Part shown: one piece after another, positions 51,012-55,102 of the stretch
How the letters are laid out: each line of letters opens with the position of its first letter
Position numbering within the stretch: the stretch's first letter is position 1
Assembly: GCF_056746865.1 (NCBI RefSeq)
Contig: NZ_CM163382.1
DNA: 64,000 nucleotides
Reading direction: 5' to 3' (one strand)
Made by a program: the position numbers and the translations under genes
The notes under the pieces: generated by a model
Databases searched by the model: none
Told to the model about the DNA's origin: nothing
What the model saw: only the letters and a program-made list of their open reading frames with translations

Positions 51012-52436
51012 ATGCAACATAAGTTACTGATTAACGGAGAACTGGTTAGCGGCGAAGGGGAGAAACAGCCTGTCTATAATCCGGCAACGGGGGAAGTTTT
51101 ACTGGAGATTGCCGAGGCATCTGCAGAGCAGGTCGATGCCGCTGTTCGTGCAGCAGATGCAGCATTTGCCGAATGGGGGCAAACCACGCCGAAAGCGCGT
51201 GCGGAATGCCTGCTGAAACTGGCGGATGTAATCGAAGAAAATGGTCAAGTTTTTGCCGAACTGGAGTCCCGTAACTGTGGCAAACCGCTGCATAGTGCGT
51301 TCAATGATGAAATTCCGGCGATTGTCGATGTCTTTCGCTTTTTCGCCGGAGCAGCTCGCTGCCTGAATGGTCTGGCGGCAGGTGAATATCTTGAAGGTCA
51401 TACTTCGATGATCCGTCGCGATCCGTTGGGGGTCGTGGCTTCGATCGCACCGTGGAATTATCCGCTGATGATGGCTGCGTGGAAACTGGCTCCGGCGCTG
51501 GCGGCAGGGAATTGCGTAGTGCTCAAACCATCAGAAATTACCCCGCTGACAGCGTTGAAGTTGGCAGAGCTGGCGAAAGATATCTTCCCAGCTGGCGTGA
51601 TTAACGTGCTGTTTGGCAGAGGCAAAACGGTGGGCGATCCGCTGACCGGACATCCCAAAGTACGGATGGTGTCACTGACGGGCTCTATCGCCACTGGGGA
51701 ACACATCATCAGCCATACCGCGCCGTCCATAAAGCTTACTCATATGGAACTTGGAGGCAAAGCGCCAGTGATAGTTTTTGATGATGCGGATATTGAAGCG
51801 GTGGTCGAAGGTGTACGTACTTTTGGCTATTACAATGCCGGACAGGATTGTACTGCGGCTTGTCGGATCTACGCGCAAAAAGGTATTTACGATACGCTGG
51901 TGGAAAAACTCGGTGCTGCAGTGGCAACGTTAAAATCTGGTGCGCCGGATGACGAGTCTACGGAGCTTGGACCTTTAAGCTCACTGGCGCATCTCGATCG
52001 CGTCAGCAAAGCAGTAGAAGAGGCGAAAGCGACAGGGCACATCAAAGTGATCACTGGCGGTGAAAAGCGCAAGGGTAATGGCTATTACTATGCGCCGACG
52101 CTACTGGCTGGCGCATTACAGGACGATGCCATCGTGCAAAAAGAGGTATTTGGTCCGGTAGTGAGTGTTACGCTCTTTGACAATGAAGAACAGGTGGTAA
52201 ACTGGGCAAATGACAGCCAGTACGGACTTGCATCCTCGGTATGGACGAAAGATGTGGGCAGGGCGCATCGCGTCAGCGCACGGCTACAATATGGTTGTAC
52301 CTGGGTCAATACCCATTTCATGCTGGTAAGTGAAATGCCGCACGGTGGGCAGAAACTTTCTGGTTACGGCAAGGATATGTCACTTTATGGGCTGGAGGAT
52401 TACACCGTCGTCCGCCACGTCATGGTTAAACATTAA
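51012..52436 (+). CDS. patD: Gamma-aminobutyraldehyde dehydrogenase (474 aa)
   Basis: Aldehyde dehydrogenase family (catalytic Cys region, ELGGKAP). Confidence 0.9.
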
Positions 52437-52658
52437 GTTAAATGTTAGTGGCTGTTATAGGGCGGCCACTATCGTTTTAGGTTCTGAGTGTAATGGTGAT
52501 TAAGTATCAGAATGATTACATTAATAACTAGCGGAAAAATTAGGCAGTTATTATGATCTAAATGTATGTTGGTGATTTTTCATCCTGTCATAGTTGATTC
52601 GCATAAGGCTTTAGAGTATCGTTATTAACCTAATAATTTATAAGTAGAAGTATTAACA

Positions 52659-53468
52659 ATGAAAGTTCAATTGTATAAATTCACGGAAGATAAAAATAAA
52701 ACCCTTACCTTCAGGTGGACGAAAAAACACTTTGAGTTTTGTATGGATAATAAAATCTTTTTAAATCATAAGGGGAAGAAGTCGTATAAAGAAAGAAATT
52801 TATTTCTTTTCTCAAAAGGTGACAAGATAACAATTGAAGATAATGTTATTGCTGAAGAATATTCAACAATGCCTGTAAAAAATTTCTCCAGTGTCGGCGC
52901 TTTTTCATTCCCGACCTGTCATTTTACAGGGAATATACATATAGGTCGATTTTGTAGTATTGCATCAAATGTAAAAATAATGGGAGGAAATCATCCTTTG
53001 AATCGTTTTACTACTCACATGATGACTTATAACGGTGAATTTGATAAGTTTGCTAAGAGTGAGTTTGAACGTAGCTGGACATTGAAACCATTCATTACCA
53101 AACCTGAAAATCCGATTATAGGAAATGATGTCTGGATAGGAAATGATGTTGTACTGAAAGGTGGCATCGCAATAGGTGATGGTGCTGTTATTGCTGCCAA
53201 TTCCGTTGTTACCAAAGATGTGCCCCCATATGCCATAGTTGCAGGAGTTCCTGCAAAAATAATCAGATTTAGATTTGATTCAAATGTTATTGATGAATTG
53301 TTGAGAATAAAGTGGTGGAATTATAATTACTCAGATCTTCCGGATAATAACAAATGTGATGATATAAATTATTTTGTTGAAGAGATGAATCGATTGATAT
53401 CAAATGGAAATATTCAAGAGATGGACTATAAAAAATTCAATCTTTCTGAGATATTTAGAGACCTATAA
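52659..53468 (+). CDS. Hexapeptide-repeat acetyltransferase of the XAT family (streptogramin A acetyltransferase Vat / CatB-like) with N- and C-terminal extensions, 269 aa
   Basis: AT-rich ORF with no K-12 counterpart that I recognise; core IGRFCSIA...GGNHPLNRF...IGNDVWIGNDVV...IGDGAVIAANSVVTKDVPPYAIVAGVPAKIIRFRFD...IKWWNY aligns by eye with remembered Vat(D)/CatB motifs; true start uncertain (weak RBS, alternative ATGs at 52743 and 52869). Confidence 0.75.
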   Translation: MKVQLYKFTEDKNKTLTFRWTKKHFEFCMDNKIFLNHKGKKSYKERNLFLFSKGDKITIEDNVIAEEYSTMPVKNFSSVGAFSFPTCHFTGNIHIGRFCSIASNVKIMGGNHPLNRFTTHMMTYNGEFDKFAKSEFERSWTLKPFITKPENPIIGNDVWIGNDVVLKGGIAIGDGAVIAANSVVTKDVPPYAIVAGVPAKIIRFRFDSNVIDELLRIKWWNYNYSDLPDNNKCDDINYFVEEMNRLISNGNIQEMDYKKFNLSEIFRDL

Positions 53469-53813
53469 TTATCTGTTCTGCATGATAAATGGGCAAGATA
53501 ACCAGTTCGGGGTTTGCAATTTCAATGGGACAGCGTCATCAAGGAGGTTGCAATCATCCTGCCATGCATATACTTTACGCCATCTTTTTATATTTACTTT
53601 ATTCCCTGAAAGTATAAAGCATTTATAGACTCCCGCGCGTCTAAAGTATTGATGATAGAAAAATGTGAAAACAAGGTTCCCTTTGAATCAGTAAGCTGTC
53701 TGTATAGACGACAGGAGGGGGATGTTTTCTACTTATTTCAATGTAGATGTCAGGAAAAAGAAGTAAATATTAAGGATAATGTTGTAAACCTGGAGAGTAT
53801 GAGATGATCTTGC

Positions 53814-53846
53814 GTACTGTCAGAGCACTGATTTCTCTGACAGTAC
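53814..53846 (-). terminator. Stem-loop just 3' of yncL, probable terminator
   Basis: 12-bp perfect stem gtactgtcagag / ctctgacagtac with 9-nt loop. Confidence 0.55.
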
Positions 53847-53869
53847 GTGCTGCGTGCAAAATCACTACA

Positions 53870-53965
53870 TCAAATAAACCAGCCAAATCTCATAGAGATA
53901 AGAGTAAACAAACCAACAGCAGCAAAGACATTTATCAGTACTACAGTTCTACTGGAAACATTCAT
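53870..53965 (-). CDS. yncL: Small membrane protein YncL (31 aa)
   Basis: Reverse translation MNVSSRTVVLINVFAAVGLFTLISMRFGWFI; below the ORF-track cutoff. Confidence 0.8.
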   Translation of the reverse strand: MNVSSRTVVLINVFAAVGLFTLISMRFGWFI

Positions 53966-54159
53966 TTTTGCCACCTTTTATCATTGCCCCTATGTGTATA
54001 GTACGGGTTAAGAAAATCCGCAATAATACTCATTCTGAAGATGGATAAGGGCAAGTTGCTGTTTGATGATTTTTTCTCAAACTGGTGAAAAAACTTGATG
54101 CACGTCAAAAAATGACGCATATTTGCGCGCGTTTTATTCATCTGGCTGGACGCCCGTAC

Positions 54160-54333
54160 ATGTCTCTCTATCAACACATGCTTGTTTTTTATGCGGTTAT
54201 GGCAGCAATCGCATTTCTTATCACCTGGTTTCTTTCTCACGATAAGAAACGCATCCGTTTCTTAAGCGCCTTTCTGGTGGGGGCAACATGGCCGATGAGT
54301 TTCCCGGTGGCGCTGTTGTTTTCACTGTTTTAA
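54160..54333 (+). CDS. ortT: Orphan toxin OrtT (57 aa), GhoT-like membrane peptide
   Basis: MSLYQHMLVFYAVMAAIAFLITWFLSHDKKRIRFLSAFLVGATWPMSFPVALLFSLF. Confidence 0.8.
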   Translation: MSLYQHMLVFYAVMAAIAFLITWFLSHDKKRIRFLSAFLVGATWPMSFPVALLFSLF

Positions 54334-54652: not shown

Positions 54653-55102
54653 TTAAAATGAGCGTCTGGCCACCAGCCAGGCGCCAACCACAAGTAAAAT
54701 TGCGCCACAAATTGGGCCGATCAACGCCCGAAGTGGTACGCCATGGCTGCGGAAGATATCCAGCACCAGACCGCCAATCAGCTGGCTGGCGACCAGTACT
54801 GCAATAGTTGTTGCCGCTCCCACATTCTGATATCCGCTGATACTGGCGAAGACAAAAAACGATCCAAGCAAGCCAGGTATAAGTGTCCACCAGCGCACGC
54901 TGGACACCAGTTCACCAAACCCCTCCATACCTTGTTTAAACCACAAAATAGAAACGAACAGCACAATTCCTACCAAAGAGTTCAGCAACATGGCGATGAG
55001 AATGGTAGAGGAGCTCTGGGTGATGCGCACCATCAGCGTGTTTTGCACCACCAGACCAATTCCGGCGGCAATCAAAAAAGCAAGGGTAAGCGACTGATTC
55101 AT
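54653..55102 (-). CDS. ydcZ: DUF606-family inner-membrane protein (149 aa)
   Basis: Multi-pass membrane ORF; start overlaps mnaT stop. Confidence 0.8.
   Translation of the reverse strand: MNQSLTLAFLIAAGIGLVVQNTLMVRITQSSSTILIAMLLNSLVGIVLFVSILWFKQGMEGFGELVSSVRWWTLIPGLLGSFFVFASISGYQNVGAATTIAVLVASQLIGGLVLDIFRSHGVPLRALIGPICGAILLVVGAWLVARRSF

Follow-up and report, generated by a model that had tools for sequence, protein, structure and literature searches.

An AT-rich segment between an acetyltransferase gene and yncL in Escherichia coli, a probable non-coding 3' flank within a variable islet

In this work, the AT-rich segment 53469-53813 of a 64,000-nucleotide stretch of an E. coli chromosome (the window) is best explained as non-coding DNA of two origins. 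It probably has no dedicated function beyond that of the 3' flank of the acetyltransferase gene in front of it, for whose mRNA it would form a passive 3' untranslated tail. Its larger part, 53469-53763, is the right end of a low-G+C islet carrying one XAT-class acetyltransferase gene, and this islet is a presence/absence polymorphism between patD and yncL, with about 21% of E. coli as carriers. The only hint of function in the segment is a hairpin on the + strand (53506-53563), and the significance of this hairpin and of any role it may have is uncertain. The result matters little; it closes a lead, as neither a hidden gene nor a pseudogene nor a known RNA lies in the stretch. It also sets the exact limits, 52438-53763, of a common patD-yncL presence/absence polymorphism.

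Position and limits of the segment

The gene order in the window is patD, the low-G+C block, yncL, ortT, ydcY, ydcZ, mnaT and curA. The features of the locus that are used below are as follows.

51012-52436, + strand: patD, which precedes the low-G+C block
52427-52437: left copy of the direct repeat, TAAACATTAAG, overlapping the patD stop codon (52434-52436); from the alignment with the empty sites of EC958 and K-12
52446-52471, + strand: terminator-like hairpin at the left islet edge, 10 bases past the patD stop, with 11 pairs and then TCGTTTT; from the consensus scan, function inferred
52578-52658, + strand: upstream region of the acetyltransferase gene, ~80 bases alignable with a Citrobacter relative (blastn extents)
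52659-53468, + strand: intact gene of an XAT-class hexapeptide-repeat acetyltransferase, 269 aa, 'CatB-related O-acetyltransferase' in RefSeq
53469-53763: islet-specific part of the segment, 295 bases of orphan non-coding DNA in single copy
53506-53563, + strand: stable RNA hairpin, 38 nt past the stop codon, the sole structured element of the segment
53617-53625: IS1 target site with 9-bp duplication in strain EC291
53738-53746: IS1 target site with 9-bp duplication in strain WP7-S17-ESBL-01
53764-53774: right copy of the direct repeat, TAAATATTAAG, at the right islet edge; from the same alignment with EC958 and K-12
53775-53812: ancestral patD-yncL spacer; from the alignment with empty alleles
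53813-53847: shared convergent hairpin of patD or acetyltransferase transcripts (+ strand) and yncL transcripts (minus strand), with a perfect 13-bp stem and a 9-nt loop
53870-53965, minus strand: yncL, small stress-response membrane protein of 31 aa; from the ORF and the RefSeq annotation of homologous loci

The segment comprises 345 bases, with the acetyltransferase stop codon (53466-53468) at one end and the yncL/patD hairpin at the other, so its coordinates are exact. It had been described in the first-pass annotation as one stretch; these coordinates stand, while the unity of the stretch does not. It is made up of 295 bases of variable islet DNA (53469-53763) and 49 bases of the old, conserved patD-yncL spacer (53764-53812). 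The G+C content of the segment is 37.4%, compared with a median of 50% for 345-nt windows across the 64-kb window, which places it in the lowest 5%; the whole window has 49%. The low-G+C block as a whole spans ~52400 to 54200.

The window was aligned with the empty sites of EC958 and K-12 MG1655, in both of which the islet is absent. By this alignment the islet extends over 52438-53763 (1,326 bp), and it is flanked by an imperfect 11-bp direct repeat whose left and right copies are identical at 10 of 11 positions. Only the last ~50 bases of the segment align to K-12, so it is not the ordinary K-12 spacer conserved base for base, a case that the first-pass annotation had named as the one that would speak against it. 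As that annotation had surmised, most of the segment belongs to the acquired or variable element. In the spacer bases 53775-53794, islet-bearing and empty alleles differ at 7 positions; here the two islet haplotypes agree with each other, and the two empty alleles (EC958 and K-12) agree with each other as well. From ~53795 onward islet-bearing and empty alleles are identical. Judged from these alignments, the right junction, with its diverged bases 53775-53794, is not fully accounted for by a simple insertion or deletion.

Three further observations concern the neighbours of the islet. In islet-bearing strains, patD appears to gain a new terminator from the inserted DNA, namely the hairpin 52446-52471. 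In strain rl0044, the patD gene that precedes the islet is truncated (its annotation is that of a partial aldehyde dehydrogenase) and lies directly against a Rha-family regulator gene, which suggests a prophage or other insertion into patD. The ydcZ gene (54653-55102) shows 5-6% differences between the window and other islet-bearing strains, compared with only 0-3% for ortT and ydcY, and this divergence hints at a local recombination patch.

Distribution and divergence within E. coli

The segment is carried by 1,158-1,160 of the 5,426 complete E. coli genomes (~21%), in single copy and always adjoining the acetyltransferase gene, which is itself present in 1,154-1,160 of them. In the remaining complete genomes only the flanks were matched by megablast. 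A distant search with the 295 islet bases across the 5,426 genomes found neither a second copy nor weak similarity in the genomes without the islet. Two islet haplotypes were distinguished. The window type (at least 99% identity) occurs in 180 genomes, and the common type, which is ~94% identical over the 295 bases, occurs in about 980 genomes. The divergence between the two haplotypes is distributed over the locus as follows.

Downstream 295 bases: 5.4-6.1%, no indels
Upstream non-coding islet DNA: 6-7%, plus a 13-bp indel
Acetyltransferase gene: 2.7% overall, with pS 0.094, pN 0.011 and dN/dS 0.11
Last 576 bases of patD: pS 0.096

The dN/dS value of 0.11 indicates that the acetyltransferase gene is under purifying selection. 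The divergence of the segment (5.4%, 16/295 sites) is somewhat lower than the synonymous divergence of the flanking genes (9.4-9.6%, 15/159 sites), although the counts are small, and the substitutions are evenly spread over the segment. The best reading of these comparisons is that the segment evolves about like the islet's other non-coding DNA, that is, nearly neutrally. With a pS of the acetyltransferase gene (0.094) that equals that of patD (0.096), the divergence of the islet is as large as that of the adjacent core gene. This suggests that the islet has long resided in the species, or was transferred jointly with its flanks, and speaks against a recent gain. It had been proposed that a remnant in the segment would help to date the acquired element and to find its source. 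For the date, the proposal has some substance, because the divergence of the segment tracks that of the neighbouring core gene; for the source it fails, because nothing alike was found outside E. coli and Shigella.

Furthermore, two independent insertions of a 768-bp IS1 have occurred in the segment, one in EC291 and one in WP7-S17-ESBL-01, so that the segment beyond 53617, at least, is dispensable in those strains. The match of strain B1.H1.1 stops at 53746, and this strain may share the IS1 insertion of WP7-S17-ESBL-01. Apart from the hairpin 53506-53563, the sequence drifts at about the pace of the rest of the non-coding DNA of the islet and tolerates IS1.

Coding potential and origin of the segment

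The first-pass annotation of the segment as ~345 bp of AT-rich DNA with no convincing ORF was borne out, both by its G+C content and by a maximum ORF length of 52 aa, which is at chance level. The longest ORF wholly inside the segment is this one of 52 aa (53649-53807, TTG start), followed by one of 42 aa (53489-53617). A 74-aa ORF (53404-53628) extends over the end of the acetyltransferase gene in a different frame. In dinucleotide shuffles, the length of the longest ORF was 45 +/- 14 aa on average, and 52 aa or more were reached in 27% of them; the absence of a convincing ORF is therefore true, yet unremarkable for 345 bases of such composition. No RefSeq gene is annotated under the segment in any carrier genome found by megablast among the complete E. 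coli genomes.

When the two haplotypes were compared, an in-frame stop codon of the common haplotype was seen to interrupt the 52-aa ORF. The 74-aa ORF is open in both haplotypes, and most of the changes between them replace an amino acid. The 42-aa ORF likewise has no interruption in either haplotype, and this continuity would be expected if the segment encoded a small protein, either by the whole 42-aa ORF or by its hydrophobic 3' part of 17 codons, MHILYAIFLYLLYSLKV (53564-53617). A perfect Shine-Dalgarno-like AAGGAGG (53541-53547), which lies in the 3' arm of the hairpin upstream of MHILYAIFLYLLYSLKV, and a run of 108 nt that is stop-free in all three + frames point in the same direction. 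On the other hand, the 42-aa ORF has 4 replacement versus 2 silent changes, including one from Leu to Arg in the hydrophobic part. Its ATG at 53489 has no ribosome-binding motif, and the distance of 16 nt between the AAGGAGG and the ATG at 53564 is too large; none of the ORFs of the segment was found to have a ribosome-binding site at the right spacing. Moreover, among 1.84 billion proteins none is a homologue of the 42-aa frame in its own right, as the matches that touch it are frameshifted or fused mis-calls of the same locus, and it was never annotated by PGAP. With its longer ORF interrupted, its 42-aa ORF changing mostly by replacement and no well-spaced Shine-Dalgarno sequence, a small-protein gene was rejected, and we regard it as extremely improbable. 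The stop-free run (53501-53608) has no TAA, TAG or TGA in any + frame and is kept in both haplotypes; it was equalled in 29 of 5,000 dinucleotide shuffles when either strand was counted. No coding signal accompanies it, and it is treated as a post hoc curiosity.

A different possibility is that the acetyltransferase gene was acquired along with a second gene or with mobility machinery, of which the segment is what erosion has left. In keeping with this, the segment is part of a variable islet, its composition is foreign-like (37% G+C versus 49% for the window), and imperfect direct repeats flank the islet. Orphan DNA at the ends of islets is, besides, often donor flank, which counts for the same explanation. 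The first-pass annotation had likewise suggested that decayed remnants of the acquired element may lie here. This gained no backing at the protein level: no frame matches Pfam, NCBIfam or any foreign protein among 1.84 billion. A six-frame scan of the segment against Pfam and NCBIfam gave no match, the best score being that of DUF1455 (E 0.24). The concatenated six-frame translation was used as a phmmer query at full HMMER sensitivity against 1.84 billion representative proteins, and it gave five matches with 77-96% identity. All five are evidently mis-called or frameshifted ORFs of the same E. coli locus, for example with TGA read as Trp, and no unrelated protein was matched.

The neighbourhoods of the relatives of the acetyltransferase gene bear on the same question. 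The label of the first-pass annotation, an XAT gene, is right at the level of the class, the best profile and structure matches being Vat, CatB and ApmA. The profile scores are all below the NCBIfam cut-offs (given in brackets), with 125.5 bits for Vat_ABCDEFH (300), 105.7 for CatB (350) and 81 for ApmA (550), and the closest solved structures are VatD and VatA (E 1e-29 to 1e-27). By these scores the acetyltransferase is a relative of the XAT class and not a member of a named resistance family. Relatives with 70-80% amino acid identity occur in Citrobacter, Cedecea, Salmonella, Enterobacter sp. Ag1 and several metagenome contigs. They stand as solitary genes, in no fewer than 8 different chromosomal neighbourhoods across the Enterobacteriaceae. 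When the alignment of the relatives was used to scan species-representative genomes, the matches listed were mostly distant hexapeptide transferases, and among these matches the scan added one E. coli-like contaminant contig and Enterobacter sp. Ag1. All members read of the 90% protein cluster of the acetyltransferase are from E. coli and Shigella.

The neighbourhoods of 11 close relatives were compared. The DNA homology begins at most 80 bases before the start codon (in Citrobacter) and ends at most 7 nt past the stop codon, so that what the relatives have in common is the coding sequence with no more than ~80 bases in front of it. A promoter-like site is located at 52610-52637, upstream of the acetyltransferase start codon, and the region 52578-52658 presumably holds the promoter and 5' leader, which would move together with the gene. 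No mobility gene was seen near the relatives. The downstream DNA of the relatives gave no blastn or tblastn alignment with the segment, and their downstream regions are also mutually unrelated. A recombination site in common gained no backing, since the flanking motif TAAAYATTAAG is absent next to the relatives at other loci, where flanking repeats are not consistent either. In a tblastn search with 771 ORF pieces from the neighbourhoods of the relatives, only chance-level scores against the segment were obtained. A distant DNA search of plasmid and phage collections with the whole islet gave no match to the segment; it retrieved only the hexapeptide core of unrelated acetyltransferase genes and one mislabelled E. 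coli chromosome. These chance-level and negative comparisons, together with the single copy of the segment, the lack of weak similarity elsewhere in E. coli genomes and the lack of an attC-like pair, speak against an eroded gene or mobility remnant, which we therefore consider improbable.

In the searches of plasmids, phages, the loci of the relatives and proteins, no homology of the segment was found outside E. coli and Shigella. The segment is thus orphan DNA, which may be donor flank and identifies no donor, and it is of no use for tracing the donor of the acetyltransferase gene because nothing similar exists outside E. coli and Shigella in these searches. A literature search for the acetyltransferase locus between patD and yncL yielded nothing relevant.

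RNA structure, promoters and comparison with known systems

The first-pass annotation also offered a promoter region or a small RNA as the content of the segment. For a promoter or other regulatory region, for example one that drives an antisense RNA to the acetyltransferase gene or a read-out towards yncL, two weak matches (9 of 12) on the minus strand, at 53823-53796 and 53496-53468, could be cited. AT-rich DNA readily yields spurious promoters. The number of promoter-like sites in 52300-54200 equals the shuffle expectation (7 versus 7.8 +/- 2.8), which lends no support to the earlier proposal. Moreover, the yncL promoter is on the other side of that gene, and in neither direction is there a downstream gene that needs a promoter here. 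A regulatory region of this type is therefore very unlikely.

As for a small RNA, cmscan of 52300-54200 (E<=10) gave no Rfam match within 53469-53812; the best scores nearby came from eukaryotic snoRNA models, with 18-24 bits against thresholds of 43. The fold of the whole segment without the terminal hairpin has a z of only -0.8 on the + strand and -1.4 on the minus strand. The suggestion of a small RNA thus found no backing in Rfam or in the whole-segment fold, with the + strand hairpin 53506-53563 as the only exception. In a sliding-window fold scan of both strands and both haplotypes, this hairpin was the single outlier. On the + strand, its free energy is -20.8 kcal/mol (z -2.9) in the window haplotype and -29.0 kcal/mol (z -5.6) in the common haplotype, compared with -8.7 (z 0.1) and -15.9 (z -2.4), respectively, on the minus strand. 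Four differences between the haplotypes lie in or beside the hairpin, and all of them are compatible with pairing. In the common haplotype, the changes 53506-7 TT>GG and 53554 T>A add pairs, and the change at 53530 turns an A-U pair into G-U. None of the 9 variants that segregate within the common haplotype falls inside the hairpin, where 1.5 would be expected, a difference that is not significant.

A hairpin that is stronger than in shuffles and specific to the + strand, and in which the changes preserve or add pairs, could mean that an RNA element is under constraint here and that the sequence does not simply drift. The segment might then carry a functional cis-acting RNA, in which the hairpin terminates the acetyltransferase mRNA or stabilises its 3' end, or forms the 5' limit of a small RNA from its 3' UTR. 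The folding energies, with far weaker values on the minus strand, the fit of all four haplotype substitutions to the structure and the location of both IS1 insertions (EC291 and WP7-S17-ESBL-01) downstream of the hairpin agree with such a role. Against it, the hairpin has no U-tract, was not called by the terminator consensus scan and belongs to no Rfam family. With two haplotypes only, there is no true compensatory change, and the 0 of 9 variants do not differ significantly from expectation. Furthermore, the stem consists in part of two copies of the palindrome TTGCAA, which may have arisen by chance, and a homologous hairpin is absent from the relatives of the acetyltransferase gene in other species. 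On balance, a functional cis-acting RNA in the segment is rather unlikely. The narrower proposal, that a functional RNA element is made up of the hairpin and the bases that directly follow it (a terminator lacking a U-tract, a 3'-end stabiliser or a source of a 3'-UTR small RNA), is to be held with still more doubt. If it were true, it would explain why all haplotype differences at this site keep or lengthen the pairing.

The consensus scan found no intrinsic terminator inside the segment. The sequence that trails the hairpin 53506-53563 is AUGCAUAUAC and that which trails the hairpin 53813-53847 is UGCUGCGUGC, with no U-tract after either. Because it lacks a U-tract, the hairpin 53506-53563 is not a canonical terminator. 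The arms of the shared hairpin are 53813-53825 and 53835-53847, its free energy is -22.5 kcal/mol (z -5.6), and it is kept in K-12 and also present in strains without the islet. As there is no intrinsic terminator between the stop codon and 53813, the acetyltransferase transcript is inferred to read through the segment. It would mean that the acetyltransferase mRNA has a long 3' untranslated tail through the segment, and that its end may lie either near the + strand hairpin 53506-53563 or at the shared hairpin 53813-53847. The segment is most probably this passive tail.

Some features of the locus recall integron cassettes with catB- or vat-type XAT genes, as there is a single XAT-class gene that occurs in many genomic contexts, and a GTTRRRY-like heptamer, GTTAAAT, happens to sit at the left junction of the islet. 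Unlike such cassettes, the acetyltransferase gene has its own upstream region of ~80 bp, and neither an integrase nor a cassette array is nearby. An integron gene cassette was rejected because there is no RYYYAAC/GTTRRRY pair 40-160 nt apart on either strand of 52400-53860.

The segment also resembles the long bacterial 3' UTRs that end in a stem-loop, with 345 nt free of ORFs from the stop codon to a strong hairpin, and the second stable + strand hairpin, 38 nt past the stop codon, adds to this likeness. In contrast to these 3' UTRs, there is no U-tract after either hairpin.

The patD-yncL islet itself is like the small intergenic islets of E. coli with one accessory gene. It differs from them in that it has no integrase, transposase, tRNA or attC site, and in that its right flank (53775-53794) has unexpectedly diverged from the empty allele. 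It is a low-G+C block of 1.3 kb with one intact gene in ~21% of the genomes, and it occupies, as those islets do, a fixed site between core genes, with short imperfect flanking repeats and with orphan non-coding DNA at both ends.
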